From Nitrospirota bacterium (lineage in GTDB: Bacteria > JACPQY01): a stretch of DNA of 64,000 bases. A program made the translations under genes and the position numbers. The notes below the pieces were generated by a model. That model did no database searches. It was given only the letters and a program-made list of their open reading frames with translations, and was not told the DNA's origin. The stretch lies in contig JACPAV010000016.1 in assembly GCA_016180645.1 (NCBI GenBank), positions 62,001 through 126,000 on the forward strand, written 5' to 3'. This document shows, one piece after another, positions 1 to 21,483 of the stretch. Numbering within the stretch: position 1 is the stretch's first letter; every line of letters starts with the position of its first letter.

Positions 1-3000
1 CGGACGTCAGCGTGAAGTTCCCGTTGATATCCAGCCCGCCGCCGGCCGTGACCGAACCTCCACTCTTGGACACCGCAAGGTCGAAATACGTGTCCGCCGG
101 AACGGTTGCGCTGGAAGCGCCGTCGAATTCGACCGTTCCGCTCGCTTCGTTCAGCGTTCCCCACACGGGCGTCGCGCCGCTGCCGTACCGGAGGCGACCC
201 GTGTTGAGATTGAGAGTGCCGCCCGTCCCATCGAAAGCCCCGTTCTGGTCCACGGTGCCGGGCCCTACGTTCAGCGTGGCATTGTTGTCGAAGAGGCCGT
301 TCGCGGTGAGAAGAGTACCGGAGAGATCCATCGTGACCGTCGCGTTGTTCGTCAGAGTCCCGCCTACGGTCATGTTTCGCGCGGAGGCGTCGTCCAGATT
401 AAGCGTGCCCGACGTGACGGTCAGATTTCCATTCAGAGTCAGGTTGCCGGTGACGGTCTTCGTCGAGCCGGAAAGAGTCATCGAGTTGTACTGGTTCCAT
501 GTCGCATCCGTCAGCGCGGGGATGTTCTGGGCGGTGGACCCGTCGAACTGGATCGTGCCGGTGTTGAGCGGAGCGGCCGCGTCACGCAGTTGAAGCCCCG
601 CGGCGGAGAGCGTGTCGCCCACCTTGAGGAGACCCGTTCCGGACCATTCGATCCCCAGCGTGGAGCCGGAGCCCGGTGTCACGTGGCGATCCACATCCAG
701 CGCGCCCGTGCTGATCGTGGCCGCGCCGTTTTGAGACGCGTCGTTCACCACGTCCTTGGCCACGGCCACCGTGTAGCCGCCGATCGCAAACGTCCCCGCG
801 GCCAGTTTCAGGTTGTTCGAGATGCCGAGATTGGACCCCGCCGACTTGGCGCCCGACGCGTCCACGGTCAGATTGTAGAAATCGCCCGAGCCGGAGGACG
901 TCACGGTCGCGGCGCCACCTGCCAAGGCGACGGTGGTGTTGCCGATGACAAAATTGCCGGAATCGGACCAGTTGCCCGAGACGCTGAGGGTCGGGGCTCC
1001 GGTCGCGCCGGCGTCGAGCGTGCCGTTGGCGCCGATCGTCACCGTTCCGCTCACGGATACGTCCGGATCGGCCGGACCATTCGAGACGATGAGGAAGCTG
1101 GCCGCGGTCCCCCCGGTGCCCAAGCTCAGGGACCCGGCGGTGAGGGACGACGTTTTCAAATCGACCATGCCTCCATTCAGGGTCATGGAGCCGGACACGG
1201 AGTGCGAAAGCACCGACCCTCCGTCCAGGTTCAGCGTGCCGGCCTGGACGGTGAGTCCGCCCGAGACCGTCAGCGCGCCCAAGGCGGTAACGCTTCCTCC
1301 TACGCCGTTGTTGACGGTGAGATTGTAGAAATTGGATGGGGTGGCGACATTCTGAGGCGCCGTGCCGCCGAAGGTCACCGTGCCGGTCCGTTCGGTGAAA
1401 CTTCCGGTGCGCGTCCAATGCCCCTTGACTTCAAGATTGTACGAGGAGGCCGACGCATCGAGCGTGGCGCCGGAGGCGATCTCGACGTTGTTTCCGACCG
1501 CATTGGAGCCGGTCTGGTGGCATCCGAGGGAGTAGGTCGCCGCGGAGCTGAATTTCAGGTTGTAGTAAGGTTCGCAGGGAATCGTCTGACTGGTTCCATT
1601 GAAGTGGAAGGTTCCGGTGCCGGTGACGTTTGCGGCAGCAGGCTGATTGTCGGTCACGGCTCCAGACGTCTGGAAAGTTCCGGTTCCCAGATTCAGCACC
1701 GAGCCTGAACTGAGCACGACGCTTCCGGACCCCGCATAGGTTGTGGAGCCGAGGTTCAGCGTCCCGCCGATCGTGGTCGTTCCGGCCGCGGTCAGGTTCA
1801 CGGACGGCAGCGTAATGCTGTTGGACCCGATGGTGAGATGGTTGATCGTGAACGATCCGGACCCGCCGATGGTTTGCGAGGCCGCCGAGGATGGGCTCAT
1901 GGAGAGCGTGCCGGAACCTGCACTGAGCGCGCCGTCGTTGGTCAGATTTCCAAGCAGGGTCAAGGATGATGTCCCCACCGCGAGGGTCGCGGACGATTCA
2001 ATCGTTGCGCTTCCCGCCACGGTCAAAGCCGATCCGCCCTGGTCCAGCGTGGCGCCGGATTTGACGGTGAGGTTGCCGTTGACCGCCAGGTTCCCGCATT
2101 GTTTTACGTTGCCGCTCACAATCTCGAGATGGTTCACTGTCGTGACGGAGCCGGAGAGGGTGCACGCCCCGGTGGACGTGCCTCGGAGCCTCACCGTGCC
2201 CGTCTGCGGGTTCCACGCGCCGCCGGACGCCACAACCGGGCCGACGTCATCGAGGGTCAGCGTCGCGTTGCTGCCGTTCAGCGTTCCCGAAGCGCCTTCG
2301 CCGATGGTGAGCGCGCCGGCACCCGCTCCCGAGAGAAAAGTCACGCCCGCGCCGGCGGCGAAGGAGACCGTGGCGCCGTTGCGGATGGTGACGGCTCTGA
2401 AATTGGGTTCCGCCCCGATGGTCGCCGTCCCGGTAAAGTACACGCGGCCCGCGCCGGCGTTCTGGCAAAGTCCGTCGTCGTCGCCGCTGCCGTCGCACTC
2501 CGGCGTCGTCACGTTGTCCGTCCAGATCCCTCCGACAAGGAGATCGCTTCCCACGCCCGTCATGAGGATGGCGCCGCCCCCTCCCGCGCCATCGTAGAGT
2601 GTCACGTCCGCATTCACGGTGAGGTCGTTCCCGGCCGTCGAGAGGCTCAGTTGGCCGCCGTCGTTGATCTCCAGCATGCGGATTTGCTCGGCGACCACAT
2701 CGATGTTGGGTTGCAACGTTGCCGAGCCGACGATGCAGCGATCATCGGGGACGGGGGCGCCCTGCCCGGTCGGGCTCCAGTTGGCGGCGGCGCTGAAGAG
2801 CGCGCTGGAGGCTCCGGTCCAGTTCCGGGTGCGCACCCACGAGATTTTCCCGTTGGCGTCATTGATCTCGAATCCGGAGCCTCCGCGGTCACCGGAGAAG
2901 CTCACGAACGTCAGGCCGAACGCGCCGTTCAGACTGTTCGCGTTCACGTTGTTGGTCATGGAGGCGTCAAACGTACAGTTTGTGCAGGTCGGGCCGGTTC

Positions 3001-6000
3001 CGTTTTCCATGTGGAACCAGATCGCCTGCGTGGAGCAATTCGCGGCGCCCGTGCACAGCGGGCCGAACGCCACCTCCGTAAACTTCGTGGCCGTGATGCT
3101 TTCGCCCGCCGCCGCCGTGCCGAGAGCCATGCCGGTGGTGTTGGATCGCGTAAATTCGAGGCCCGTGACGTCCAGCGTCGCGCCGGAGTTGATGGTAAAG
3201 GAGGTGAAGTTGGCGCCGATTCCGGAGGTCGTGAGCCTGGCCTTGAGGGGCGCCGAGCCGCTCTGTGTGGTGCGGAAGGTCCCGCCGACCGTCATCGACC
3301 GCGCGGAGGCCGAGTTGTCAAAGGTCAGGATTCCGCGCGCCGCATCCGTTCCCGTCATTTGGTAGGACGAGCCGGCGGCCACCGTAACATTGCCGGCCAC
3401 CGTGAGAGACGCCGTCTGCGCGTCGAAAACGCCGCCGTTGACGCTCAGGTTACCCCCAAAGGAGTGGGTTCCCGTGGAGAGGCCGAATACGCCCGCCGTG
3501 AGCGTCACCGCCCCGATTGTCGTCACATTCCCATTGGCCGTGAGCGCCCCCCCGGACTTGTTGACGGTCAGAAGGTTGAATGCGGTCGCCGCCGCGATGG
3601 TTTGCGATCCGGATCCGTCGAAGGTGACGGTGGATCCCGTGTTGGTGAAGGTTCCGTTGCGCGTGAAATTGCCCGCGAGCAGGATCGTGTCATTCGCCGC
3701 ATCGAGGGTGCCTGCGGCGCCGATCGTCAGGTTGCCGTTCACGTCGAGCGTTTCGGAGCTTGCCGCCGGAGTCGTGCAGTTCTCTCCGATGGGCGCGGAG
3801 GACACGCTCGACACGTTCAGATGATTGAGCGGCATGTTGGCGTTGGCGTTGGCGATGAGCCACTGGGTGACTCCCGGTCCTCCATCCAGAACCACCGTGG
3901 AAAGTCCGGGGGTAAAGGTCGCCGTGTCGGCTGCCGCCTGGCCCAGGCAGAAGGTGCCCGCCAGGTTAAGGGTGACCGCGGTGTTGACGTTTCCATCGAG
4001 CTTCGCGCCCGCCGTGAGGACCAGATTGCCGTCCACGTTCCAATTCCCGTCGATGAGGACTCCCGAGGCCGACGTATTTGTGATCGTCACATGGAAATAA
4101 TCGCTCGCCGAGCCCGATTGGGCGCCCGTGCCGATGAACTCGACCGTCGACGATTGGGCGTTGAACGCCCCGCCGTTGATCCAATCGCCCTTCAGTTTGA
4201 TCGTGGAGGCGCCGCCGTTGAACGTGGCGCCCGACGCGATGATCAGATTCCCCGCGACGTCGAGGGTACCCGTGGCGCTCGCCGCGGCACCGGTGGGCTG
4301 GAGCGAGAGGTGCCAGAAATCGTCTCCCGGACCGGTCGGGATCACGGTATTCGGAGTGGAGTTGAAAACGACGGTGGAATCGGACAGCGGGACGAAATCG
4401 GCGGATCCCGCGCAACCTGTCTCGACCGTGAGCGTATTGTTCACGGTCAAGGTGAGGCCGGAGTTGAGGGTGAGCGTCGCGCCGCTTGCGCCACTGCATT
4501 TGAGCGTCAGGTTCTTGATCGACGCCCCGGCGGCATCCGAAATGACGGGACAGGTGGGAGAGCACGCGGCCGGCACCTCGGCGGAGTCCGTGCCGCCCGG
4601 CACTTGGTCCGGATTCCAATTCGCCGCCGTGTGCCAATTCGCCGTCCCCCCCCCCGCGTCCCACTGGGTGATGCTGTTCCACACGACGTTCGCATCCGGC
4701 AGCGCGGCGTCCTCGTCATCGAACGATCGAGTCTCGCCCGCATTCGAACCGGCGGGGGCGTCCATATCGATCCGGGACGCGCCGGAACCGGACGATTGGA
4801 AGCAGACGTTCATGTCGTTCACGGTCGAGGGAAACGAGTGGCCGTTGAGAGAGTCGGCGCCCGTGGCGGTGAGAGTTCCAGACGACACGTTCACCCACAG
4901 CGCGCAGGAAAAATTCACGGCCGGCGCGCCCGCGCAAGGATCGGAGCCGCAGAGATCCGGTGTGTCCGAAAAGGACACATTGTCAAGATTGACCACGTTG
5001 GAGTTGGACCCGTTCATGTTGATCTTCATGCCGGATGCATCGGCGAAGCCGACGTTCAGCCTGGAGATGTCGACCGTGCCGTTGACGGTGAACGTGTACG
5101 TTCCGGCGACCGAATGAGTGATCGTGGGGCCTGAGCCGCCGGTGCTGAGCGCGCCGCCGGACGCAATCGTCAACGTCTTCCCCCCGGCGAGGGCGAGCGT
5201 CGGCGTGCCCAGGAGTTTGAGCGTGCCCCCGTTCACCGTCACGCTGCCATTGGCCGTGAGCGTCGCGTTGCCCAAATCGAGCGTGCCCGCGTCCACCGTC
5301 ACCGTGCCGCTGCCGGCGGTGGAACTCGTGGTGACGGACTGATTCAGGAGGAGTGTTCCGCCGGACTTGTTGAGGCGGAGCTTGCTGACGTTGATGGTGG
5401 CCGCGCCCGTCACGGTTTGGGACCCGCCGCCGTTGAATTCGACGAGGGTCGCCTTGCTCCCCGAGGTATCGGACAGCGTTCCCTGAATGTCGAAATCCTG
5501 CCCAACCAGGAGATTGAAGCCGGCGGTATCCAGCGCCCCGCTGGAAAGGATCTGGAACTTGTTGGAAACCGTTGTCGCGGCTCCAATCGAGGCTGTGGCG
5601 GAGTTCACCGTGAGATTGTAGAAATTGGTCACGTTCGTCGTCACCGCTCCGCCGCGCCACTCCACGGTGGATTGCTGGGGGGTGAACGTCCCGGTGGATG
5701 ACAACGAGTTGGCGCGGAAGAACGTGCCGTTCCCCGCGCTGTAGGTCGCCCCGGCCGTGATGGTGAAGATGCCGGTATTGGTCAGACGGATGTCCTTCCC
5801 GGTGCTCACGGCGGTGGCATCTCCGGACGCGTCGCCAATCGTCAGGTTGTTGAAGCATTCATCGGTGGCCATCTGCGAGGCGGCGCCGGTCATGACGACG
5901 GTCGTATTGTCCTGCCGGAATCCGTCGTCCCCTGAGGCGCAATCAATGCCGGCCACACTGTTCGTCCACGTCCCACCCACGTTGATCGTTGCGGCCCCCA

Positions 6001-7312
6001 CCCCGTCGTTCAGATTGCCGGAGGCAATCAGGAGGTTGTTGGAAACCGTCAGCGGGGTCGTCGCCACGTCGGCCAGATCGGTCGCGTTGGGAAGCTGGAC
6101 ATTCAGATTGTAGTGGGTTTCATTCGCCCCCGCCCCGCCGCCCGCTCTCGGAAGCGCCGCCGCGTTTTTCCAGACGAAAGTCCCTGTGCCGGGGGCGAAC
6201 GTTCCGTTATCCGTCCACGTGGATCCTGAATTGAAGGTGAACGTGCCTCCCGATGTCAGGGTATGGTTGGCGGCAATCGATGCGGCGCCCATCACCGTAA
6301 TTGCCGCCCCGGAGGCAAACGTCGTGCTCCCAGCCGTCCCATCGCCGAAGGTGACGTCGGTGAACGTCGTGCTGCCGCCGACCGAATGCGCCCCGGCCAC
6401 GCCCGTTTCCACGAAGCGAACGGCCATGCCCGAGCTGGCGTTGAACGTGCCGTTGTTTGTCCAGCTCCCGCCGACGTCCAGGGCAAAGCCGTTGGCGCTG
6501 AGCGTGGCGCCGGAATTGATCGTGAGATTGTTGGCTACGTCGCGGCCGGTGGCGGTCGTCATCGCCGCCGTGATCGAGCTGGTCCCCGCGATGACGAGAT
6601 CGTAAAACCGGTCGATCGGCACGTCCGTGTTCCCCTTGATGGTGACGATTCCGTTGCCCTCGGAGAAGGTGCCGGTCCACGTGAGGGCGGCCGAGGCGTC
6701 CATGATCAATTCCGCCTGGGTGGCATTGTTCCCCATGTTCAAGGTGCCGGTGCTCAGCCGGAAGGTGCCGCCGACTTCCAGTTTGGCCGCGTTCTGCATC
6801 ACACATGAATTCGCCCCGGTCGCGGTGATTTCCACGTCCGTGAATTTATTCGCCCCTGTGGTGTTGCCCGATACCGCGCAGGGTCCGGATGCCCCGCTGA
6901 AAATCACATCCCCGCTCTGATGGGTGATCGTTGCGCCCTGGTTGTTGAACGCGCGTCGAATGGAGAAGTTCCTCGTCACCAGGTTGAAGGTGAGCTGCGA
7001 GCCGGATTGCAAGGTCAAGTCACGCATCGTGGCGTTGCCGGAGTTGTCTGCCGTGGGCCACGAACAGGTCCCGCATTTGGTGGAGGGAATCTCGACGTCG
7101 CTGCCGTTGGCCGGGATGCTGCCTTCATCCCAGTTGCCCGAATTCCTCCAGATACCGGACACGTCACCTTCCCAGCACCAGATGCCGTCGCCTGGGTTGG
7201 AGGTGCAGGCGTGGGCCGCGCGCGGCAAAGCCGCCGTGATGAGTAATGCGTGAAGTGTGATGAGACAAAGAAGCAGACGACCCGCGCTCCGGTGGTGTTT
7301 CACGTTACCCAT
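1..7312 (-). CDS. Giant secreted beta-helix/adhesin-like protein (>2437 aa, 3' end outside window)
   Basis: Manual translation from ATG 7312: MGNVKHHRSAGRLLLCLITLHALLITAALPRAAHA (signal peptide) then CTSNPGDGIWCWEGDVSGIWRNSGNW. The same frame reads ...VSKSGGSVTAGGGLDINGNFTLTS at the window start. No stop-terminated ORF in this frame appears in the track, consistent with an open frame to position 2. T/G/N/S/A-rich with repeated xLxVxGNLTIxxGxTL strands; 13 nt downstream of the previous stop. Confidence 0.9.
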   Translation of the reverse strand, partial: MGNVKHHRSAGRLLLCLITLHALLITAALPRAAHACTSNPGDGIWCWEGDVSGIWRNSGNWDEGSIPANGSDVEIPSTKCGTCSWPTADNSGNATMRDLTLQSGSQLTFNLVTRNFSIRRAFNNQGATITHQSGDVIFSGASGPCAVSGNTTGANKFTDVEITATGANSCVMQNAAKLEVGGTFRLSTGTLNMGNNATQAELIMDASAALTWTGTFSEGNGIVTIKGNTDVPIDRFYDLVIAGTSSITAAMTTATGRDVANNLTINSGATLSANGFALDVGGSWTNNGTFNASSGMAVRFVETGVAGAHSVGGSTTFTDVTFGDGTAGSTTFASGAAITVMGAASIAANHTLTSGGTFTFNSGSTWTDNGTFAPGTGTFVWKNAAALPRAGGGAGANETHYNLNVQLPNATDLADVATTPLTVSNNLLIASGNLNDGVGAATINVGGTWTNSVAGIDCASGDDGFRQDNTTVVMTGAASQMATDECFNNLTIGDASGDATAVSTGKDIRLTNTGIFTITAGATYSAGNGTFFRANSLSSTGTFTPQQSTVEWRGGAVTTNVTNFYNLTVNSATASIGAATTVSNKFQILSSGALDTAGFNLLVGQDFDIQGTLSDTSGSKATLVEFNGGGSQTVTGAATINVSKLRLNKSGGTLLLNQSVTTSSTAGSGTVTVDAGTLDLGNATLTANGSVTVNGGTLKLLGTPTLALAGGKTLTIASGGALSTGGSGPTITHSVAGTYTFTVNGTVDISRLNVGFADASGMKINMNGSNSNVVNLDNVSFSDTPDLCGSDPCAGAPAVNFSCALWVNVSSGTLTATGADSLNGHSFPSTVNDMNVCFQSSGSGASRIDMDAPAGSNAGETRSFDDEDAALPDANVVWNSITQWDAGGGTANWHTAANWNPDQVPGGTDSAEVPAACSPTCPVISDAAGASIKNLTLKCSGASGATLTLNSGLTLTVNNTLTVETGCAGSADFVPLSDSTVVFNSTPNTVIPTGPGDDFWHLSLQPTGAAASATGTLDVAGNLIIASGATFNGGASTIKLKGDWINGGAFNAQSSTVEFIGTGAQSGSASDYFHVTITNTSASGVLIDGNWNVDGNLVLTAGAKLDGNVNTAVTLNLAGTFCLGQAAADTATFTPGLSTVVLDGGPGVTQWLIANANANMPLNHLNVSSVSSAPIGENCTTPAASSETLDVNGNLTIGAAGTLDAANDTILLAGNFTRNGTFTNTGSTVTFDGSGSQTIAAATAFNLLTVNKSGGALTANGNVTTIGAVTLTAGVFGLSTGTHSFGGNLSVNGGVFDAQTASLTVAGNVTVAAGSSYQMTGTDAARGILTFDNSASARSMTVGGTFRTTQSGSAPLKARLTTSGIGANFTSFTINSGATLDVTGLEFTRSNTTGMALGTAAAGESITATKFTEVAFGPLCTGAANCSTQAIWFHMENGTGPTCTNCTFDASMTNNVNANSLNGAFGLTFVSFSGDRGGSGFEINDANGKISWVRTRNWTGASSALFSAAANWSPTGQGAPVPDDRCIVGSATLQPNIDVVAEQIRMLEINDGGQLSLSTAGNDLTVNADVTLYDGAGGGGAILMTGVGSDLLVGGIWTDNVTTPECDGSGDDDGLCQNAGAGRVYFTGTATIGAEPNFRAVTIRNGATVSFAAGAGVTFLSGAGAGALTIGEGASGTLNGSNATLTLDDVGPVVASGGAWNPQTGTVRLRGTSTGACTLSGSVTTVNHLEIVSGNVKQCGNLAVNGNLTVKSGATLDQGGSALTVAGSATIESSATLAVGTSSLTLLGNLTNDGALSAGSGTLSMSPSSAASQTIGGSGSFTINHLTIGSNSITLPSVNLTAAGTTTIGGTLNLGSTTYAGSGSVVLSSGSVLNLGTGTFQTSGAVTDNQPAAANVTGTGTFHFNGTSQTIPCEPYYNLKFSSAATYSLGCHQTGSNAVGNNVEIASGATLDASASSYNLEVKGHWTRTGSFTERTGTVTFGGTAPQNVATPSNFYNLTVNNGVGGSVTALGALTVSGGLTVQAGTLNLDGGSVLSHSVSGSMTLNGGMVDLKTSSLTAGSLSLGTGGTAASFLIVSNGPADPDVSVSGTVTIGANGTLDAGATGAPTLSVSGNWSDSGNFVIGNTTVALAGGAATVTSSGSGDFYNLTVDASGAKSAGSNLGISNNLKLAAGTFAIGGYTVAVAKDVVNDASQNGAATISTGALDVDRHVTPGSGSTLGIEWSGTGLLKVGDTLSAAGLQLRDAAAPLNTGTIQFDGSTAQNIPALTDATWNQYNSMTLSGSTKTVTGNLTLNGNLTVTSGTLNLDDASARNMTVGGTLTNNATVTMDLSGTLLTANGLFDNNATLNVGPGTVDQNGAFDGTGGTLNLNTGRLRYGSGATPVWGTLNEASGTVEFDGASSATVPADTYFDLAVSKSGGSVTAGGGLDINGNFTLTS

Positions 7313-7325
7313 CACTCATCACCCT

Positions 7326-10300
7326 TCACGATGTCTTCAATCGTATGACCGGGCCTTGGATCGGCTGCGCATCCACGGGCACGATTTGTTGCGAACTCTG
7401 CCCCACGGCCGTCAGGTCGGCCGGCCCATCCCAATGAACCACCACGGACACTTCCGGAGGAGGCGACCCGATGGTGGCTGAGGGTTCCGACACGCCGCCT
7501 CCACACCGGGCCATGACCACTCCCAGAACGACAGGACCGGCTGCGAGGAGGGACAGTCGCCGGCCGGCCCGCCCCCTGCGAACCGTGATCAGGAGGACGA
7601 TGAGGATTCCGCCTCCCGCGAGCAGTCCTGGAAGTAACCGATGGAAACCGCCGGCGATCGCGTCATCGACGCCGAACCGGAGCGAAGCGATCAACCGCCT
7701 GGATTGCCCCGCGGGCACGAGAACGCGCAGCGCTTCGAACCGCGCCTCGCCCTCATCAAGATTCAGGATGGCGGTGCCCACTTTCGAGTCGCTCCGGCTT
7801 AGCTTCAGATCCGCGTTCGTGTCCTCGTAGAGATCCACTCCCGAGAGGACACCGTCGGGAAGATCGGACAACCCGCGGACCGAAATCGTCGTGACGAGCA
7901 GGTCCTCGGCCTTTGACGCATCCAGTTTCCATCCCACGGCGGTCACGCTGTCCGGGAAATCAAGACGTATTTCATCCTGGGCCGGCATGAGGGCCGACGC
8001 CGTCAGCCGGCCCACGTTCTCCACCGTCACCTTCGGACCGGACAGAGGCAGCCCCATCACCTCAATCGCGGCGTTTGAAACGGCGCCCTCGGCCACGATC
8101 CCGCTTCCCGCGTCGATCCCCGCCGGGAAATCTTCGCCATGCCGGAGGGCGTCGGTAAAGTCATAAACAATCAGAAGCGGAAGGGCCGCGCCCACCGGCA
8201 CGACTAACGCGAGAGGCTCGAAACGGGCGACGGCGTTCTCCGTCTCCTCCGCGCGCGCGAAACGTTGCGGCGAGCCCAGAAGGGTTTCTCCCGGATCCGC
8301 CGATCCGTTGGCATTGGAGTCCTCGATGAGACGAATCTCCCGAACGCTCCGGACCTCGTCTCCCGATCCCCTGTCCGATACGGTCAGCGACCGCACGCGC
8401 ACGTCCTCCACGCTTCCAGCCGACAATCGCAGGGAAAGCACGGGGACGCCGACTGCATTCGGGCCGACCTTCAGCGGCGCAGCCTTCGCGGGATCGAGGG
8501 AAACGGTCAGCGAAGTCTTGTCGGAGATCCGCTTGGCGGGGCCGGCCAACGGCAACGCCGCCACCTTGAACGGTTTTCCCGAACCCATGCCTTTGCCCAA
8601 GATGCCGTCCACCGGGATCGTCAGGGCGAAGGTCTGTCCGAAGACCGGCTGATTCGTCAGGTCGCATGCCACGATCCAGGTCTGCGTCGAACCCGCGGGC
8701 AGCCGGAGGTCCAAACCCGTCCAGGAGATGGCGCCGTTGTCCGAACTCAAAGACCGGTCACTGAGAATTTCCGTTTCGCCTTCTTCGACCGAGCCGTTGC
8801 CGTTCCGGTCCACCACGCCGCGCACGGCGCGGATTCCTTTCGCGTCGTCCCCCGTACCCGAAGCTTGGACCGTGAGCGATGTGACTCGGATTTCTTCCGT
8901 CGGCCCCGCCGTCAGGGAGAATTGGAGAAGAGCCAGGTTGCGGAGTCCTTTTTTCTCGTTGGATTCGCCCGGGCTGGCGGCCGTCTTGGCCAGGATCAGG
9001 GAACCGGTATCCTTGACGATGACTTGCACATCCGCGGGCAGGCTGGTCAAGGCTCCATCCGACACCGTGAGGCGAAAGGCAAGCACCGGCTGTCCTTCAA
9101 TGTCCGGGGCGGTGAAAGTTGCGGACTTCGCCGTGGGGCTGGAGAGCACGGCCGCAGGGCCGGCCGTCTGGGACCAACTGTAGGTGATGGTCTTGCCGTC
9201 GGGATCGAAGCTCTTGGAGCCGTCGAGGGTGACCGACATTCCCTCGAAAACGGTGTACCCCTCCCCCACGCTCGCAACCGGCCTGTTATTGAGGAGATTG
9301 GCCGCACCCAAGGTTGGGGTCCACTGGTCAAACCAACCCGATGGACTGTTCGCGGGTCCCTGCGCCTCCATCGAATGGCCTTCCGCGAACGCAGGGATGA
9401 ATTGGCCCACCGTCCAGATGGCGGCGGAGTCGGCCACGTCCTCCCGGGCCTGGCCCCCATCGCCCCACTGCAAAAAATCCACCAGGTTGTCGTCGAGGGT
9501 AAAATCACTGTTGTCCAGGAACAGAGAGAGGGTATCTTTTGAATTCCCCAGGTCCGTCCACGGCCCGGTGAAAACGTCAGAAGTCGTTTTCGTCCCCGCT
9601 TCATTCACGTGCACCGTCAGCAGCCCCCCCGCGTCGACGAACGTTCCGGGGGGAAAGCACCACGCGGACGATCCGCAAGCGGAGGCCGTGCACAGGCACA
9701 TGCCGTCCAACGCCTGTCCGAAGGCCCCGGTGTTCTTGAGTTCTATTCTTTCGTGGGTCGCGTCGTTCCCCGTCGGGTCCGCCAAGATTTCGTTGAACAG
9801 AATTTCAAACTGATCGGCGCGTGCGCCGGAGGCGCGCGCAAGCAGTAAACCGTGAACCGCAAGCAGCAGGAAAACGAAAGAGAACCAACGCAAGCCTTCA
9901 CCCCCACCCGCACCCTCCCCCGTCGAGGGGGAGGGGAAGAGAGGGCTGCCCGTGCCCCTTTCCATCCCTTCCCCCCTTGAGGGGGAAGGGGAGGATGGGG
10001 GGTGCTGAACGGTTACGAGCCTTCGAGCACGGCGAAGGCGCAAGAAGAAAAAGCCGGCAAGGATCAGCACGGGAACTGTGCCGCCCACGTCCAGGGGCAG
10101 GTGGCCGCCGATGTGGGCGCAGCCGCAGCCGCCTCCCCCGTTGCTCGCTGCTCGTTGCTCGTTGCTCGTAGGCTCGGCCTCGGGGGTTCCCCCGAACGCC
10201 CCCTGATTGATGCGACCCCCGTTCGGCTCCGGCTCCATTAAGAACTCATCGTCCGGATCGCCCGCGTCGATCAAAGGCGACCCCGGCGCCAGTTTGAAAT

Positions 10301-12962
10301 TGAACGCATCGGGATCGGTGAAGATCGGATTCAGGCTCAGCAGTCCCAATTCACCCATGGCCCTCGCGGCCTGCTCTTCGGTGAGCGAAAGGCCGGGGAG
10401 CGAGCCGGTGGCGCCCGCCGACACCGAGCACCCCTGCGCCATGCCGCCCGCGTTCTCGAACACATTCGAGTACGAGATGCGGATCTGCCCCGCCACACAC
10501 CGGGCGCCGTGCCCCGCATTGTTCGAGAAAACCGAGTTCTTGATCAGCACCGCGGCGGAGGACGGCGTCGCCAGATTCAAGGCATCCGCGCGGTTTCGTG
10601 AGACGGTGACATTGATGAGGGCCAGGTCGACCCGGACCGGCGAGGCAGGCCGAACCAGAATTCCATTATCGCTGTCCGTCACGACCACATTCCGGAGCTG
10701 CGCGTTTCCCTCGACCAGGATGCCGGCGCGGCCGCCGCTGACGGTCAGGTTCGAGACGAAGCCTCGCGCGCCAACGATGACACCGGCTTCCGACGAACCC
10801 GAAACGTGCACGATCGTGGCGGCGGGACCCACGCCGGTAAGCGATCCGCCTTCCGGCACCCGGATGGGACCTTCCACAACACCCGGGCCGAGTTCCCGGG
10901 TGAGGGCAACGGACGTCGAGGCCGAAATCTCCGACTGAATCAAAGTTTCTCCCGACGGAGAAGGCGACGTGCCCGCCGCAGGTGGAGGCGGAAGGGCCAC
11001 GTTCCGCGCGAGCGGTGTGGCGCTGGCGCACGCCTTGGGGCCCTGCTCGTTGTCTTCGTTATACGGCGTCACGCAAATGGTGTACGTTACGCCCGCCGTA
11101 AGCAGCGGGAACGTGTACGCCGCGAGAGGCCCGATGTCCTGAGCCTTTTGATCCCCCACCTGAATCCAGTATCCGGTCGGCGCCGTTCCCGGTCCAGCCG
11201 ACCAGCTCACCGTAATCTTCTCCTCCCCCGGCACCGCCGCGAGGTCCTTGACCATCGAAGGCACTCCCAAGGTGAGAACGCTGAAACTCTGAACGGCGGA
11301 CCACTGCGACTGCGCTCCGTGAGCATCCTCCACCCGGAGCCTCCAGTACAGCGTCGTCCCGGCGTTCAGCGGCGAAGGAAGGGTGAACGATCCCGTGCCG
11401 GCTACCGTATGAAGGGCATACCCGGCGTCCTGCGACTCCAGATCGGCATCGTCGTCCACCTCGATGAGGTATTTCAGTTGGGACGCGGAGGTCAACGAAT
11501 CGGAACCGTCACCCCATGTCAGCGTGACAGAACGGCAACGTGTCGCCGCGCATTTCTGGGTCGGCGCCAGGCCGGAGAGATTGGCGGGTGAACGAGAAGA
11601 CGCCGGGGGAAGCGCAGGCGGCGTGTTGTCCGTCCGGTAGCCGTGCACGGTTCCATCGGATGCCGCGACAACGGCCACCCCGTTGGAAAAGGCCGGAGAG
11701 GCCGAGGCGGACTTGCCGAGATCGATTTGCTGGAGAAGGCTTCCATCGCTGGATTGCAGCCGGCGGATACCCCCTGCAGCCGTGACCGCCAGGACCTCCG
11801 TGCCGAACACCGCCGGCGTTGGGCTGTAGCCGCCCGATCCGGGGGCGCCGAAATCGACGGCCCACAAGACGGCCGACGTGGCCACGCCCACCCCGAAGAG
11901 GTGTTGGGTGCCGGAGCCGGCCACGGCGAACGCCCTAGCGCCATCGGTAGCCGGAGAGGACACGAAGTTGGAATCCGAGGCGGCGGCGGCCGGCGCGCGC
12001 CGCGGCGCACGCGAGGGTCCAGATTCGACCCACTGCCCCGTCCTCAGTTTCTCGGCATAGTCCATCTGGAACGGATTGTCACGCTCGTCCGGCGGGGATT
12101 CTTCCAGGGGTGCCGGCCTCCGCGAGGGGGCCGAATGTCCCGCAGGAGTATTGAGATCCACCGTTCCGAGGCCGAGTCCGCTGGAGGCGTCGATTCGATA
12201 CAGATTCCGATCGACGTTCCCCGGTACGGCGAAGAAATATCCCTGCGCGGCGGCCGGCGAGGATCGGTAGACTCCGCCCCCGGTTGAGAACGCGAACAGA
12301 AAAGTACCCGTTGCCGCATCAACGGCAGTGAACTTCCCGTTGTTGGCGCCGAAGTAAACCTTCCCCCCGGCGACCGCGGGCGAGGAAAAAGTGACCTGGC
12401 CCGCGGCGTAGCTCCAAAGCGTCGCGCCACTGGATGGGTTCAGCGCGTGGATTCGGCCCGAGGGAAACCCGGTCGTCACGAAGATTCTCTGTCCGTCCGT
12501 TCCGAGCGATGAAACGACGGTGCTTTGGAGGTCGGCGGTCCACAGAGAATCGCCCGATGAAGGATCGAGCGCGACCACGGTCCCTTCCTTCGTCGCCACG
12601 ACCAACCGCCCTTGAACCAGGACAGGGGTGGACTCGATTGCCACGCCGATCCTCTTTTTCCAAATGGTGGCCCCGGACGCCAAGTCCAAGCCGTGCAGTT
12701 GGCCGGCCAAGTCGGCCACAAAGAGACGGCCCGCGGCGGCGACCGGAGAGGCCGTTATGGCGGCGCCTGCGGCATAGGTCCAGGCCGGAGTGAGATTTCC
12801 AACAATGACTTCCTGTGAGGATCGGGAATTCGCCGCGTCGAATCCGAATTGCGGCCAATCCTTTGCTGAAGCGTTGAGGACCGAGAAAGGCAGAAGGGCG
12901 ATGGCCCATATGGGCAGCACGGCTTTGCGAATTGCCGCTGTGAGGACAAACCTACACTCCAT
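7326..12962 (-). CDS. Large multidomain surface protein: PQQ-like (BamB-type) beta-propeller, FN3, right-handed beta-helix, MYXO-CTERM-like motif, lamin-tail domain, PKD, three Ig-like repeats
   Basis: ORF 7326..13094; start moved to M45 (12962) because a sigma70 promoter lies at 13017-13044 and a signal peptide ends at ASA|KDWPQFG. Motifs: repeated SSPAVAGG / LW blades; LYWRLRVED and ITVSW..Y (FN3); SPLIDAGDP..EPEPNGGRINQGAFGGT; GGGCGC+TM+RR; ILFNEILADP..E.IELKN and TPTLGAAN (LTD); VTLDGSKSFDPDG..YSWSQTAGP (PKD). Confidence 0.85.
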   Translation of the reverse strand: MECRFVLTAAIRKAVLPIWAIALLPFSVLNASAKDWPQFGFDAANSRSSQEVIVGNLTPAWTYAAGAAITASPVAAAGRLFVADLAGQLHGLDLASGATIWKKRIGVAIESTPVLVQGRLVVATKEGTVVALDPSSGDSLWTADLQSTVVSSLGTDGQRIFVTTGFPSGRIHALNPSSGATLWSYAAGQVTFSSPAVAGGKVYFGANNGKFTAVDAATGTFLFAFSTGGGVYRSSPAAAQGYFFAVPGNVDRNLYRIDASSGLGLGTVDLNTPAGHSAPSRRPAPLEESPPDERDNPFQMDYAEKLRTGQWVESGPSRAPRRAPAAAASDSNFVSSPATDGARAFAVAGSGTQHLFGVGVATSAVLWAVDFGAPGSGGYSPTPAVFGTEVLAVTAAGGIRRLQSSDGSLLQQIDLGKSASASPAFSNGVAVVAASDGTVHGYRTDNTPPALPPASSRSPANLSGLAPTQKCAATRCRSVTLTWGDGSDSLTSASQLKYLIEVDDDADLESQDAGYALHTVAGTGSFTLPSPLNAGTTLYWRLRVEDAHGAQSQWSAVQSFSVLTLGVPSMVKDLAAVPGEEKITVSWSAGPGTAPTGYWIQVGDQKAQDIGPLAAYTFPLLTAGVTYTICVTPYNEDNEQGPKACASATPLARNVALPPPPAAGTSPSPSGETLIQSEISASTSVALTRELGPGVVEGPIRVPEGGSLTGVGPAATIVHVSGSSEAGVIVGARGFVSNLTVSGGRAGILVEGNAQLRNVVVTDSDNGILVRPASPVRVDLALINVTVSRNRADALNLATPSSAAVLIKNSVFSNNAGHGARCVAGQIRISYSNVFENAGGMAQGCSVSAGATGSLPGLSLTEEQAARAMGELGLLSLNPIFTDPDAFNFKLAPGSPLIDAGDPDDEFLMEPEPNGGRINQGAFGGTPEAEPTSNEQRAASNGGGGCGCAHIGGHLPLDVGGTVPVLILAGFFFLRLRRARRLVTVQHPPSSPSPSRGEGMERGTGSPLFPSPSTGEGAGGGEGLRWFSFVFLLLAVHGLLLARASGARADQFEILFNEILADPTGNDATHERIELKNTGAFGQALDGMCLCTASACGSSAWCFPPGTFVDAGGLLTVHVNEAGTKTTSDVFTGPWTDLGNSKDTLSLFLDNSDFTLDDNLVDFLQWGDGGQAREDVADSAAIWTVGQFIPAFAEGHSMEAQGPANSPSGWFDQWTPTLGAANLLNNRPVASVGEGYTVFEGMSVTLDGSKSFDPDGKTITYSWSQTAGPAAVLSSPTAKSATFTAPDIEGQPVLAFRLTVSDGALTSLPADVQVIVKDTGSLILAKTAASPGESNEKKGLRNLALLQFSLTAGPTEEIRVTSLTVQASGTGDDAKGIRAVRGVVDRNGNGSVEEGETEILSDRSLSSDNGAISWTGLDLRLPAGSTQTWIVACDLTNQPVFGQTFALTIPVDGILGKGMGSGKPFKVAALPLAGPAKRISDKTSLTVSLDPAKAAPLKVGPNAVGVPVLSLRLSAGSVEDVRVRSLTVSDRGSGDEVRSVREIRLIEDSNANGSADPGETLLGSPQRFARAEETENAVARFEPLALVVPVGAALPLLIVYDFTDALRHGEDFPAGIDAGSGIVAEGAVSNAAIEVMGLPLSGPKVTVENVGRLTASALMPAQDEIRLDFPDSVTAVGWKLDASKAEDLLVTTISVRGLSDLPDGVLSGVDLYEDTNADLKLSRSDSKVGTAILNLDEGEARFEALRVLVPAGQSRRLIASLRFGVDDAIAGGFHRLLPGLLAGGGILIVLLITVRRGRAGRRLSLLAAGPVVLGVVMARCGGGVSEPSATIGSPPPEVSVVVHWDGPADLTAVGQSSQQIVPVDAQPIQGPVIRLKTS
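9898..10004. repeat. Double-hairpin palindromic element (CCCCCTCAAGGGGG / CCCCCTCGACGGGGG family) inserted in frame
   Basis: TCACCCCCACCC...CCCTCCCCCGTCGAGGGGGAGGG...CCCTTCCCCCCTTGAGGGGGAAGGG...GGGGGGTG; encodes HPPSSPSPSRGEG...PSPSTGEGAGGGE; related copies at 17070-17224 and 51884-51993. Confidence 0.9.
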
Positions 12963-13016
12963 TATTAGGATGTCTGGCACGCAAGAGACGGTCCACCCTC
13001 CCATCGGATGTGCGGA

Positions 13017-13044
13017 ATTGTATATTATTTCAAAGGAATGTCCA
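13017..13044 (-). promoter_or_regulatory. Putative sigma70 promoter
   Basis: TGGACA-N16-TACAAT in an AT-rich patch upstream of the large surface protein gene. Confidence 0.65.
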
Positions 13045-13183
13045 CTTGGAAGGCCCGTTTTTCCGATGGCTTTGCACGACCCGGATACTTGCATCGAAAA
13101 AGCTCACCTGGAGTGAGAACTTCATGACGGACTGGTCGAGTGCAATTCAGATAGTCATCCCGTGGCCTTGCGGGGCGTCACCG

Positions 13184-15640: not shown

Positions 15641-16492
15641 ATGTACCTCGGCTATTGGGGCCTCGTGGCGGCACCGTTCCCGATGGCCCCCGACCCCCGT
15701 TTTTTTTTCCTGGGCTCTTCCCATCAGTCCGCCCTTTCGAAATTGTACTACGGGATGCAGACGTGCAGCCCCGGCATTCTCGTCACGGGGCCGCACGGAG
15801 CGGGCAAGACCTTTATGCTGCGTCTCCTCATCCACACGCTGCCGCCGGAGAAATACAATGTGGGCCTCCTGTTCAATCCTCCGCTCGGCACCGATCAGCT
15901 CCTTCCCGAGCTGATGTACCAACTCGACGTTCCGATCTCGAACGGGGGGCCGCAGGAACAGCTCCGCGAGCTCTCCGACCGGATCATCAGCGACCATCTT
16001 CGAGGCATCCACACCCTACTTCTCATCGATGAAGCCCAACTTCTGCCGCCGGAATCACTCGAGCAGCTTCGCGTCCTGGCCAACTACCAACTGGATGCAC
16101 AAAGTCCCGTCACGCTCATCCTTTCCGGACTTCCCAGCCTCCGCCCCACCCTCGCGCCGAATGTCGCCCTCCTTCAGCGATTTGCCATCAGCGTTTCGAT
16201 CACGCCCCTCACTCCACGCGAAACGGTTCGATATGTACTCCATCGTCTCCGATGCGCCGGCGCCGTTCGGGCCATCTTTACGGACGAGGCTCTCCAATCG
16301 GTGCAACGGCACTCGGGGGGCGTTCCCCGGCTGATCAATGCCTTGTGCGATGCATCCCTGCTTGAAGGATGGACCGAGCGCCGGACGTATGTGGAAGGGT
16401 ATTTGGTGGAAAAGGTCGCCCGTGCCTCCGCCTTTCGAGTGGCTTCCCCGGTAGCCGCAGGCTTCATGCCTGCGTCCGAGGAGGCACCCTAA
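15641..16492 (+). CDS. ExeA/GspA-family AAA ATPase (ATPase domain only)
   Basis: YLGYWGL..PF..PDPRFFF N-terminus, Walker A GPHGAGKT, Walker B LLLIDEAQ, SGGVPRLINALCD. Confidence 0.9.
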   Translation: MYLGYWGLVAAPFPMAPDPRFFFLGSSHQSALSKLYYGMQTCSPGILVTGPHGAGKTFMLRLLIHTLPPEKYNVGLLFNPPLGTDQLLPELMYQLDVPISNGGPQEQLRELSDRIISDHLRGIHTLLLIDEAQLLPPESLEQLRVLANYQLDAQSPVTLILSGLPSLRPTLAPNVALLQRFAISVSITPLTPRETVRYVLHRLRCAGAVRAIFTDEALQSVQRHSGGVPRLINALCDASLLEGWTERRTYVEGYLVEKVARASAFRVASPVAAGFMPASEEAP

Positions 16493-16581
16493 AGGATGCG
16501 CCTACCAAGAGCCAACGGCTTCCCCCGGCGGATAGGGTCGAAAGTTACCCGGTCCAGAGTCGAGGGTTTCAGAGATGGCAC

Positions 16582-17978
<1,397 letters not shown>

Positions 17979-18018
17979 CCCTCAAGGAGTGGACAAGGAA
18001 TCAAGTGGACCCTTCATG

Positions 18019-18147
18019 GTAGCCGCAACCTTCAGGTTGCGTCCGCTCTATCGTGCGCAGGCTAAAGCCCCTTGCCACGGAGGGCATGGGACCATGCAAT
18101 GTTGCCGCGCTCAGGATGGCGCGGCATGTAACATGGCCTGCGGCTAC
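18019..18147. repeat. GTAG-type REP doublet interrupted by a 67-bp MITE
   Basis: GTAGCCGCAACCTTCAGGTTGCG ... CGCAGGCTAAAGCC[insert]TGCGGCTAC. Confidence 0.85.
18070..18136. mobile_element. 67-bp MITE (CCWTG...CATGG ends, CC duplication), copy 1
   Basis: Same length and layout as 42316-42382 and 49608-49674; removing it restores a perfect REP hairpin. Confidence 0.8.
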
Positions 18148-18155
18148 CAAGCACT

Positions 18156-19316
18156 TTGCCACTTCCGGACGCTTGCTTGAAGAATACGGACCTGCTCAAA
18201 GGGAGTGTGGGCGGATCGCCCGCGGCGCAGTCTCCACAGGCGCCTCCTCCCGCTCCGGGACGCAAAATGCGGATGATCGATACGATTCGCCCCGAGGCTC
18301 CCCCCCCCCGGGAAACGACTCGCCCCGTCCCGATTCAAGTCCAGGCCGAACCGGAACCCACAGCCCGTCCCACACCCGGCTCAGAGCGCCCGCCGAATCT
18401 CCCCATTCCCGTTGAATCGCCGCATCCTGAGATCCATGGAGGCGTGCCCGCGCATCGGCGGGCCAGTTCGCTGGAGAAGTTCGAGCAGAGCCTGACCGAC
18501 CTGTTCCACAGGGCGCGGCAGAAAGAACCGGCGGTCCTCCCGGACGATTTTTGGCTCGATGTTCACGAATTGGTGGAGATGGTGCCTGAAGACCCCGATG
18601 GATTTCTGGCTCACGTGTTTGAAATGGGTCCTGATGATCCCGAGTGGCCGCTCGAACACCACGCGATCAATGTGGGTATCCTCTGCATCCTGGTCGGCCG
18701 GCATCTGAGACTGGATGAGCACGACTTGAGAGATTTGGCCGGTGGGGCGCTGGTGCACGACCTCGGACTCGCCCCGTTGAAGCGACTGACGGAGCAGAAC
18801 CGCCGGCTCACGGATCGGGAACGCCGTCTCATCAGCCTGCACGCCTACGAAGGTGAAAGACTGTTTGCCGATGCCAACAAGGGGTTCGATACCGTCCAAC
18901 TGATCGTGCGACAAAGCCAGGAGCGTGAGAACGGGACAGGCTCGCCGGAAAAAATCTCCACCGATGCCATCCATCCTCTCTCAAAGATTGTCGGAGCTTG
19001 CGACGCCCTGGAGAGCCTGACCCATCGACGGCCTTACCGGCCGATCTCCACTCCCCGCGCGGCCATTCAGAAACTCCTCGATGAAAAAGAGAAATACGCT
19101 TCTCCCGTGCTGAAGGCCATGTTGACCTGCATCACCCCCTATCCTCCGGGCAGCGTGGTCCACCTCAGCACCGGTGTGCGGGCGCGCGTCAAGCGCGTCA
19201 ATGCCGGGAGCTGTCTGCGTCCGGTAGTCACGCCTTTCGGGCCCGGCAAGCACGAGGGAATCGATCTGGACTTGATGCATCTGCCTCACGTCTGGATCCA
19301 AGAACTGAAAGGATAG
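18156..19316 (+). CDS. HD-GYP-like protein with degenerate catalytic motifs and Pro-rich N-terminus
   Basis: HHAINV, GALVHDLG, QSQERENGTGSP (vs QHHERxDGxGYP), CDALESLT.RPYR, YPPGSVVHLSTG; start uncertain. Confidence 0.8.
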   Translation: MPLPDACLKNTDLLKGSVGGSPAAQSPQAPPPAPGRKMRMIDTIRPEAPPPRETTRPVPIQVQAEPEPTARPTPGSERPPNLPIPVESPHPEIHGGVPAHRRASSLEKFEQSLTDLFHRARQKEPAVLPDDFWLDVHELVEMVPEDPDGFLAHVFEMGPDDPEWPLEHHAINVGILCILVGRHLRLDEHDLRDLAGGALVHDLGLAPLKRLTEQNRRLTDRERRLISLHAYEGERLFADANKGFDTVQLIVRQSQERENGTGSPEKISTDAIHPLSKIVGACDALESLTHRRPYRPISTPRAAIQKLLDEKEKYASPVLKAMLTCITPYPPGSVVHLSTGVRARVKRVNAGSCLRPVVTPFGPGKHEGIDLDLMHLPHVWIQELKG

Positions 19317-19323
19317 GCGCGGG

Positions 19324-21483
19324 GTGGAACGTCCGGCCACCGTTTCCTTCCCGCAGGTTGTCAAGATCATCGCCAGGCGGAAGGCCATCGTGGTCCTGTC
19401 CTGCGTCATCGGCGTGGCCATGGGAATGTTCCAAGTCCGTTCCAAAGCCCCGACCTATGAGGCCACCGTCGTCATCCAAGTCAAGTCTCCGCCGCCCAGC
19501 GGTCAGGGCGGGTACTTCGAGACCGTCCAGCATTCCGTCGTCCAGGCCTACACGGCTTCGCTCGTGATCACCTCCACTCCCTTTCTGCTGCGGGTCGCCA
19601 AGGAACTTGGGAAGATTCCCCGTGAGATGTCCTGGGACGATGTGAACAAGTCCGACATTCACCTCGGAGTCATCAAGGCGCTCAGGTCCAAGATTACGGC
19701 CAACCAGCGGCGGGGTGAAGGGCCGACGCCGTTCGTCGAGATCACCGCCCATTCCGGAGAACCCGAAGAAGCACGGGATGTCGCGAATACCGCAGGGCGG
19801 GTGTTCATCTCCTATCACCGCGACAACGTGGTCAAGGTGGAGTCCGAAGCTCGCGAGTACCTCGACCAGCAGAAGACGCTCCTCTCCGGCCAGCTCGCAG
19901 AAGCACAGGAAGACCTGCTCCGATTCAAGACCCAGCGGGGCATCGTGGACATCGCTCCCGAACGCCAGCGAGCCATCCAGGAGAGGGTGGACCTGACGTC
20001 CACTCTCGAATCGCTGCAAGGCAAAGAGGAAAAGCTGGATGAAATGGCCGTCCGCTTCTCGGACGACCGCAATACCCACCGAGATGACATCCTGTCCTTG
20101 GGACTGAAAACGGCCGGGGTGGACGTCGGCGCACTCTTCGAATCGCTCCTCCAAGATGTCACCGCGCGGGATGTCCTGATCCAGGATCTGACCCCCGAGC
20201 ACCCGGAGATCATCCAAATCGACCGCCGCGTCTTCAACGGTTTCAAGCGGCTGAAGGACAAGATCCACGAGGATCTGGATCAGGTGCACATTCAGCTGCG
20301 CGGGTGGGAAACTCGGCACGCCGCGCTCCTGAAGGAGGAAACGGAGCTCCTCCAGCTGGAGGCGCACGTGGACATGGTGCGGAAAAGCCTCGAAGGGCTC
20401 GACCAGGAACTCCAGGAGGTGGGCCTCAAGACCATCTACAGCGGCGAGCGCGCCCAGATCATTCAGCCTGCCGTCACGCCCGAGCGTGGATTCCGAAAGC
20501 AGTGGCCGACGTTTGTCACGGCGGGACTGCTCCTGGGATTCGTGATGGGGCTCTTCCTCGCCTTCGTTCGCGAGGCCTTCGACTTCTCCCTTCGGCAGAT
20601 CGAAGAGATCGAGGAACTGCTCAAACTGAGCGTCCTCGGTCTGATCCCCCGCCACACGCCGGGCCGAGGAACTCTCGCGGAAACCTCGCCGAAACCCTAC
20701 GCCCCCTCGATCGTCGAACGGGTCCCCCTGTTGAGCTTCCCCCGATCGCCGGTCTCGGAAAGTTTCCGAACGCTTCGCACCACCGTCCGCCGGATCGAGC
20801 CCGGCCATGAAGTGTACCTCGTGACCAGCGCCAGCCCCCAGGAGGGAAAATCTCTCCTCTCCCTCAACCTTTCCCTGGCCATGGCCCAGATCGGACTGAA
20901 AACGCTCCTCGTTGAGGCCAACATGCGCCGTCCCACCTTGGACAAAGTCATCGGTTTCAAGTCCTCCCCCGGCCTCATTCAAGTCCTCCAGGGAGCGATC
21001 GACTGGCACGAGGCGGTTCGCACACTCCCGGACCTCCTGCTCTCATCATGGACGCTTGATCTGGCGGAGGGGTCGGGGTTGGACCGGTTGGATTTCATTC
21101 CATCCGGAGGAAGCATCCATCATCCGTCCGAACTGATCGAAGACGGGTTCGACAATTTCAAACTGGCCGACGAGTGGCGCAAGGCCTACGACGCGGTCAT
21201 TTTCGACGCGCCTCCCGTGGTGCCGGTCACGGACTCCGCCACGCTGGCCCGCTTCGCCGATCGGATTCTACTCGTCTATCGCATGGGGCGCACGCCTAGA
21301 GACCTCGTCCAACGCGCCAAGAAGAATCTGGAAGCCGCCGGCGGGAAGATACTGGGCGTCATCGTCAATGACGTCGAGTTCCGGGAAATCTCCGTTGGCG
21401 TCGGGTATCGCTACGGCCGGTACTATCATGCCGCGGAGACCACCCCCACGCGATCTTCCCGCCGGCAGAAGAAAGCCGCCTGA
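19324..21483 (+). CDS. Wzc/GumC-type polysaccharide co-polymerase with BY-kinase domain
   Basis: N-terminal TM, long coiled coil, second TM, ESFRTLRT, Walker A TSASPQEGKS, LLVEAN, VIFDAPP, C-terminal Tyr cluster GYRYGRYYH. Confidence 0.9.
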   Translation: MERPATVSFPQVVKIIARRKAIVVLSCVIGVAMGMFQVRSKAPTYEATVVIQVKSPPPSGQGGYFETVQHSVVQAYTASLVITSTPFLLRVAKELGKIPREMSWDDVNKSDIHLGVIKALRSKITANQRRGEGPTPFVEITAHSGEPEEARDVANTAGRVFISYHRDNVVKVESEAREYLDQQKTLLSGQLAEAQEDLLRFKTQRGIVDIAPERQRAIQERVDLTSTLESLQGKEEKLDEMAVRFSDDRNTHRDDILSLGLKTAGVDVGALFESLLQDVTARDVLIQDLTPEHPEIIQIDRRVFNGFKRLKDKIHEDLDQVHIQLRGWETRHAALLKEETELLQLEAHVDMVRKSLEGLDQELQEVGLKTIYSGERAQIIQPAVTPERGFRKQWPTFVTAGLLLGFVMGLFLAFVREAFDFSLRQIEEIEELLKLSVLGLIPRHTPGRGTLAETSPKPYAPSIVERVPLLSFPRSPVSESFRTLRTTVRRIEPGHEVYLVTSASPQEGKSLLSLNLSLAMAQIGLKTLLVEANMRRPTLDKVIGFKSSPGLIQVLQGAIDWHEAVRTLPDLLLSSWTLDLAEGSGLDRLDFIPSGGSIHHPSELIEDGFDNFKLADEWRKAYDAVIFDAPPVVPVTDSATLARFADRILLVYRMGRTPRDLVQRAKKNLEAAGGKILGVIVNDVEFREISVGVGYRYGRYYHAAETTPTRSSRRQKKAA

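Follow-up and report, generated by a model that had tools for sequence, protein, structure and literature searches.

A candidate divergent lipo-invert anchor interrupting the last β-sandwich repeat of a long exported protein from a Nitrospirota bacterium

The window analyzed here, a stretch of 64,000 nucleotides from a Nitrospirota bacterium (assembly GCA_016180645.1, contig JACPAV010000016.1, positions 62,001 to 126,000), carries on its reverse strand a gene for a long exported protein whose third and last β-sandwich repeat is interrupted by a membrane hairpin. The hairpin is comprised of a transmembrane helix (TM1), the Arg-rich loop RRGRAGRR and a second hydrophobic segment that leads into a cysteine and GGG (Cys1864; residues are numbered on the long open reading frame (ORF) in which the gene lies). 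The tail of 59 residues counted from Cys1864 to the terminal S1922 is the missing C-terminal part of the interrupted repeat. A preliminary description of this stretch had quoted the strings that split the repeat and a piece of about 59 amino acids after the Cys, and all of these were found in the translation. The hairpin tail belongs, as a divergent copy that scores below the threshold, to a module already named by curators, the NCBIfam entry NF058595 ('invert_tail'; 'lipo-invert putative C-terminal anchoring domain-containing protein'), and is not a new kind of signal. For this copy the favored account, which we regard as evenly poised, is that of a divergent lipo-invert anchor with a hairpin left uncleaved by the lipoprotein signal peptidase LspA and a tail that completes repeat 3 in cis.

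According to this account, an N-terminal Sec signal would export the chain until TM1, acting as a stop-transfer helix, halts translocation, with the RRGRAGRR loop remaining in the cytoplasm as the positive-inside rule would have it. The short second helix would then insert in the manner of a signal peptide and re-export the last 59 residues, which would fold back as the final strands of repeat 3. A hairpin of two helices, seated in a loop of the last domain, would hold the protein at the inner membrane and leave its N-terminal domains pointing away from it; we infer this topology, the processing state and the role as an anchor from the sequence and the models described below. The split itself would have a rationale in that the lipid of a lipoprotein signal ends up on the N-terminus of the part downstream of the Cys; anchoring the C-terminal end of a protein by such a signal would need a downstream piece that stays attached, a purpose that the last strands of a β-sandwich could serve.

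The tail as the end of repeat 3

The last 231 residues of the long ORF hold the split repeat 3, the hairpin and the tail. The tail was compared with a profile hidden Markov model (HMM) of 164 positions, to which 127 other proteins contributed one full-length intact unit of the repeat apiece. Taken by itself, the 59-residue tail scores 17.3 bits over positions 128-162 of this HMM (single-sequence E 1.7e-7), compared to 3.4 bits for the best of 300 shuffled tails on the same HMM. When aligned by MAFFT with 16 intact units, the tail falls under the last ~45 columns, and the four nearly invariant residues of ..TAxG....P.xG (A, G, P and G) are all present in it. Repeats 1 and 2 of the protein are clearly alike (alignment score 193; shuffles 35 ± 6). 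The local pairwise alignments of the tail fall exactly on the ends of these two repeats, with scores that 133 and 130 of 2000 shuffles also reach, and are not significant alone. The likeness among the three repeat ends from which the preliminary description set out is thus suggestive by pairwise comparison and stands on the profile, by which the tail supplies the C-terminal part that repeat 3 lacks.

The AlphaFold2 model, computed with our own MAFFT alignment (mean predicted local distance difference test (pLDDT) 81.8; predicted template modeling score (pTM) 0.70), gives pLDDT values of 82-98 to the N-terminal part of repeat 3, 95-98 to the tail strands (model residues 190-197, 203-207, 216-218 and 221-229) and ~50 to the hairpin, where TM1 appears as a helix at model residues 129-149 with low confidence. 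Given as two chains, residues 1-120 of the N-part and the 59-residue tail are predicted to associate with an interaction prediction score from aligned errors (ipSAE) of 0.70 (0.66-0.72 in three runs), 150-161 contacts, a partner pLDDT of at least 71 and agreement of the runs on at least 85% of the contacts, with residues 19-59 of the tail chain forming the interface. The best of three controls reaches 0.02. The pass mark of this comparison is a rough guide only, own alignments having been used: of 80 solved complexes 58 attained it, as did 2 of 110 mismatched pairs. The two halves of a single domain would tend to attain it; as a modeling result the score shows that the halves fit and says nothing on whether the chain is cut. 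The packing of the tail into repeat 3 that had been supposed at the outset is thus predicted both in cis and between separate chains. A Foldseek search of the PDB returned weak matches to cohesins and other β-sandwiches (template modeling scores of 0.42-0.48 on the target side, with the floppy hairpin inflating the root-mean-square deviation), by which the repeat fold may be judged a cohesin-like β-sandwich.

A chance origin, in which the protein simply ends in a hydrophobic, low-complexity C-terminus and the tail is unrelated to the repeat, would be compatible with the pairwise alignments taken alone. It is contradicted by the profile match, by an insertion site common to five proteins, by the confidence of the AlphaFold2 model and by the controls of the two-chain model, and we consider it refuted.

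Recurrence of the design and its relation to known signals

The same split-domain hairpin design was found in six further proteins from distant lineages, making seven with this copy. Four of them split a member of the same repeat family, namely P0015, P0152 (the product of locus L021 in genome G034), P0153 and L068 (genome G161), while L022 (G019) and L062 (G094) split a different host domain of the fn3 type. The genomes G034, G019, G094 and G161 come from a sample of 401, for which 33 of the 45 rows listed were inspected (all but those of G050, G011, G385:C3, G140, G159, G213:C10, G249, G386, G022, G059, G281 and G097), such that the count is a lower bound. In all five split members of the repeat family, the N-part extends to HMM position 117-125 and the tail picks up again at 123-130; because these break points coincide on the HMM, the hairpin occupies the same insertion loop in all five. 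The tail of L062 matches positions 43-82 of the 84 of Pfam fn3 (30.2 bits) and its Pur_ac_phosph_N alignment spans the hairpin, while the tail match of L022 is weak. Since the split fn3 examples add a second β-sandwich family, the presence of one cassette in at least two unrelated families of this fold argues that the mechanism includes completion of the domain by the tail. Conservation of the internal Cys, on which the preliminary description had staked its proposal, holds in all seven proteins. Conservation of the lipobox around it is partial: the -1 residue is a canonical Gly, Ala or Ser in five of the seven (S, S, G, A and S), Thr in P0015 and Arg here.

Among the best 150 of 625 representative hits, a hydropathy scan found the hairpin to be shared only by P0015. 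Most other relatives with a terminal hydrophobic segment, in the same 150, place an intact repeat before a Cys motif, a transmembrane helix and a basic end. Such endings, seen in P0007, P0016, P0119, P0154 and many more with the Cys motif GCGC, GGCGG or GSSG..C, show the mirror order of the parts found in the present protein. In P0015 itself, the loop between the two helices is 59 residues long (residues ~778-836) and contains ...HRDHRGHRE...SLCSLWL..., which has the look of a palindromic repeat that was inserted in frame and is translated.

A pattern scan of the 21,051 frames of the present genome gave no second copy of the design, and the other 21 of its 22 matches to NF058595 are N-terminal lipoprotein signals or unrelated hydrophobic stretches. 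A genome of the same family (G001), 84% complete, gave no homolog with the query used, which does not imply absence, and a word-indexed search with the last 233 residues returned no match, missing P0015 as well. Searches at the phylum level were uninformative, the phyla having only 2, 8 and 13 genomes; a search for related loci gave back only the contig of L021, a look-up of clusters returned no names, and no RNA holder is listed for the stretch.

NF058595 has a model length of 113, of which positions 26-95 match the last 154 residues of the present protein with 23.1 bits (E 7e-5; 17 bits with the whole ORF), and its curated cut-off of 37 bits is not reached. Other split proteins also score under the cut-off (L021, 28.9; L022, 28.9; L062, 26.7). 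The match lies at the C-terminus of a long exported protein, its signal having been read by eye, and ends 36 residues short of the stop. Shared with the model are a transmembrane helix, a basic loop, a lipoprotein-type second helix with a Cys (CGGG here) and a short tail, these being attributed to NF058595 from the name of the family and the model positions matched. Model positions 1-25 and 96-113 have no counterpart here, and the canonical lipobox is lacking, Arg being at -1. In two proteins of other genomes (L045 and L064), positions 82-112 of the model match the end strands of ordinary immunoglobulin (Ig)-like domains, and the host domain of the model therefore appears unlike the cohesin-like repeat seen here. 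The scores of NF058595 come mostly from its lipoprotein-signal part; N-terminal lipoprotein signals reach 20-39 bits. At 38.9 bits, L041 (G146:C1:1718555-1718698) is the only match over the cut-off in the 401 genomes, and it represents an ordinary N-terminal lipoprotein signal, after which come CGGGGGG and a linker rich in Pro and Thr. Because this sole match is N-terminal, the model is unspecific for the C-terminal design when used in six-frame searches. The preliminary description did not recognize the arrangement as a described sorting mechanism, a view overtaken by the NCBIfam entry, which already describes a lipo-invert anchor, although no paper on such a tail was found in the full text of open-access PubMed Central (PMC) and bioRxiv.

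The hairpin also shares features with two more familiar kinds of signal. Like an ordinary lipoprotein signal, it has a basic n-region, a short h-region and a Cys, with Gly and a flexible tether after it, but it is internal, lies ~800 residues from the N-terminus after a stop-transfer helix and has Arg at -1. With the Cys-motif, transmembrane and Arg endings of its relatives, which presumably resemble MYXO-CTERM-type signals, it shares the repeat family, the position at the end of the protein and a Cys at the outer membrane face, beside a transmembrane helix and a basic cluster. The parts are arranged differently, the relatives having an intact repeat, Cys motif, transmembrane helix, Arg cluster and end where the present protein has the N-part, transmembrane helix, Arg cluster, second helix, Cys and the rest of the repeat. 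TM1 as an ordinary Cys-motif sorting signal was considered and ruled out, as no Cys precedes it and the chain runs on past the basic cluster; the CTERM models of NCBIfam gave no match listed at E values up to 1.

Reading frame and processing of the hairpin

Contigs assembled in Logan from four groundwater runs span window positions 7250-8039 with zero differences and zero indels, although three of the four runs are possibly the source of this DNA and thus not independent. A low-depth contig of a related strain (run X3, window 7396-7685, ~9% different) covers the hairpin and differs at 23 listed positions in 22 codons, of which 10 are synonymous and 12 conservative, with no indel. Within TM1 hydrophobic residues are exchanged for hydrophobic ones, the Cys is retained and the Arg at -1 is retained through a synonymous change. 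Judged from the sequence, this pattern is that of a translated frame under purifying selection.

These observations bear on whether two genes, one for a protein ending in TM1 and RRGRAGRR and the other for a small lipoprotein, have been fused by a lost stop codon or an assembly error. The long ORF does have one such read-through upstream, at the junction of its first and second genes with repetitive extragenic palindromic (REP)-like repeats, and the inter-helix loop of P0015 contains a Met. Here there is no stop between the helices and no in-frame ATG, GTG or TTG from TM1 to GVVM, the Arg cluster doubles as the flank of the stop-transfer helix and the n-region of the signal, and the tail on its own is a domain fragment. 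The frame is furthermore unbroken in all seven proteins from distant genomes, the contigs of the four runs agree without indels and the variant contig keeps the frame, and a fusion of two genes is accordingly very improbable.

The genome encodes Lgt, two LspA paralogs and Lnt, along with BamA and LolA, and the host is, by its gene content, a diderm with a full lipoprotein pathway. Both LspA paralogs are full-length (Peptidase_A8; G000:C17:205152-205580 and G000:C13:36242-36667, 139 and 137 bits). The lipobox of this copy reads M-A-R-C. The consensus [LV][ASTVI][GAS]C, as given in PMC8689077, does not take in an Arg at -1. Among candidate lipoprotein N-termini of the same genome, gathered with a pattern open at -1 to -3 and including spurious frames, the -1 residue is Gly, Ser or Ala in 14/19 of the CGG class and 68/81 of a wider class; Arg is found there in 0/19 and 2/81, respectively. 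Because the Arg is both off consensus and atypical for the genome, cleavage by signal peptidase II in this copy, which the preliminary description had proposed, is doubtful.

That cleavage nevertheless takes place is possible, if less probable than an uncleaved hairpin. Lgt would lipidate Cys1864, LspA would cut before this residue, and the resulting 59-residue lipopeptide would complete repeat 3 in trans and tether a protein that keeps a remnant of TM1, loop and second helix. The arrangement has partial parallels: GAIN and SEA domains are cut by autoproteolysis and held by their own β-strands, and in the donor-strand complementation of pili the strand comes from another subunit. By analogy, and in keeping with the two-chain model, a strand-bearing fragment might stay in the β-sandwich if the chain were cut, with the difference that the cut proposed here would fall to a membrane signal peptidase and the fragment would carry a lipid.

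Several observations speak for cleavage and weigh against an uncleaved hairpin alike. The Cys, the CGGG and the short (17 residues), Gly/Pro-containing second helix look like a working lipoprotein signal, with a Cys kept throughout the seven proteins and a canonical -1 residue in five; Lgt, both LspA paralogs and Lnt are present, so processing is possible; and the tail is predicted to bind the N-part as a separate chain far above the best control. If the hairpin alone were the anchor, it would not be obvious why it sits inside a domain rather than after it, and its placement within domains of two unrelated families is easiest to understand if cutting occurs. The match to NF058595, at 23.1 bits against a cut-off of 37 and with N-terminal lipoprotein signals scoring similar or higher, is a further weakness of the favored account. 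Against cleavage stand the Arg at -1, its preservation through a synonymous change in the variant strain and the Thr at -1 in the closest homolog, P0015, and the score of the two-chain model indicates a fit of the halves, not cutting. Because the box is M-A-R-C, cutting by LspA is unlikely in this copy, and the uncleaved hairpin with completion in cis is favored over cleavage with completion in trans.

The second helix might instead be a type I signal. Signal peptidase I follows the -3/-1 rule, and a cut after V-M-A, before R1863, would fit with V at -3 and A at -1, as read from the sequence, and would leave an unlipidated tail bound by its strands. Neither the closest homolog (…FTLTTC) nor other members have a comparable A-x-A site there, and the conserved Cys would be left unexplained, making this a quite improbable alternative.

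Across the family as a whole, the second helix is a true lipoprotein signal, with a Cys that is probably lipidated. It is a bolder and rather unlikely proposal that Lgt and LspA serve throughout to lipid-anchor the C-terminal end of giant exported proteins, with LspA cutting in a domain loop and the lipidated tail holding the rest of the protein only through β-strand complementation, and that the Lol pathway might carry lipopeptide and cargo to the outer membrane once the hairpin remnant is removed. If true, proteins would be sorted by a route for which the literature searched gave no precedent. C-terminal anchoring of large surface proteins is known from sortase, exosortase and related systems, all of which depend on an enzyme of their own; a tail that sends the chain back through the membrane and so puts the universal lipoprotein machinery to a second use would be a solution distinct from these, and a widespread one. 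The lipo-invert module has a curated entry with a putative function, to which the present copy adds an example from a groundwater metagenome and a rarely sampled phylum (two genomes), in a cohesin-like host repeat unlike the Ig-like domain on which the curated model seems to be built. With its degenerate lipobox, the copy is a natural experiment on whether the anchor can work through the hairpin alone or depends on cleavage.

Gene layout and surroundings

The split repeat lies in a single open frame of 1922 codons (window 7326-13094, reverse strand), which most likely joins two genes. The closest relative, P0015 (918 amino acids; 43% identity over the repeats), carries a signal peptide at its N-terminus, starting at the point matching residue ~1068 of the long ORF; because P0015 begins there with its own signal peptide, the 855-codon gene would be the true unit and the long ORF two genes. 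Its start codon, TTG at 9893 or ATG at 9965, was chosen from the DNA. The gene encodes, in order, the signal peptide, an LTD-like region, a PKD domain, three β-sandwich repeats and the hairpin tail (Table 1), the LTD-like region (PF00932) being present in a precomputed domain list and not in our own Pfam scan.

Table 1. Features of the gene with the interrupted repeat, in window coordinates; residues are those of the 1922-codon ORF
Feature	Window position	Strand	Residues	Remarks
Gene carrying the hairpin tail	7326..9893	-		855 codons; TTG at 9893, stop 7326-7328; probable true gene
N-terminal Sec-type signal peptide	9816..9893	-		(M/L)RWFSFVFLLLAVHGLLLARASGARA; likely cut before DQ; read by eye and aligned to the P0015 N-terminus
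PKD domain	9015..9257	-	1280-1360	Pfam PF22352, 54.9 bits
Intact repeat 1	8526..9005	-	1364-1523	ends ...GILGKGMGSGKPFKVAALPLAGPAKRI
Intact repeat 2	8022..8525	-	1524-1691	ends ...GIVAEGAVSNAAIEVMGLPLSGPKVTV
Split repeat 3, N-part	7638..8021	-	1692-1819	HMM positions 26-117, 43.9 bits; pLDDT 82-98
TM1	7581..7637	-	1820-1838	LLPGLLAGGGILIVLLITV; NF058595 coverage from model position 26; putative stop-transfer helix
Loop RRGRAGRR	7557..7580	-	1839-1846	six Arg in 8 residues; predicted cytoplasmic
Second hydrophobic segment	7506..7556	-	1847-1863	LSLLAAGPVVLGVVMAR; 17 residues, Gly-Pro mid-segment; resembles the h-region of a lipoprotein signal; ends in non-canonical M-A-R
Cys1864, lipobox-cysteine position	7503..7505	-	1864	followed by GGG; aligned Cys of the three split proteins in the alignment (invariant column C173)
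Gly/Pro/Ser linker	7452..7502	-	1865-1881	GGGVSEPSATIGSPPPE; pLDDT ~50-69
Tail strands	7329..7451	-	1882-1922	missing C-terminal quarter of repeat 3; HMM positions 128-162

The upstream part of the long ORF comprises a β-propeller, fn3-like domains and a β-helix, and the upstream gene ends in GGGGCGC...TM...RLRRARR (residues 986-1025), the Cys-motif, transmembrane and Arg ending common among relatives of the repeat family. The junction of the two genes (window 9890-10140, reverse strand; residues 986-1093) has no in-frame stop and reads into the signal peptide of the second gene. It holds two REP-like palindromic units of ~40 nucleotides, each with ~20-27 copies in the genome; the units are at ~20-fold excess depth in metagenome contigs, which break there.

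On the other side, an ORF of more than 2438 codons (window 2-7315, reverse strand) begins 10 nucleotides past the stop of the hairpin gene and extends beyond the window; it has a signal-like N-terminus ending in AHAC and no Pfam family above cut-off. On the forward strand, at 15641-21483, lie genes for an AAA_22 ATPase, a response-regulator receiver protein, an HD-domain protein and a Wzz/ParA-like chain-length-determinant protein, neighbors that suggest a polysaccharide-export setting.

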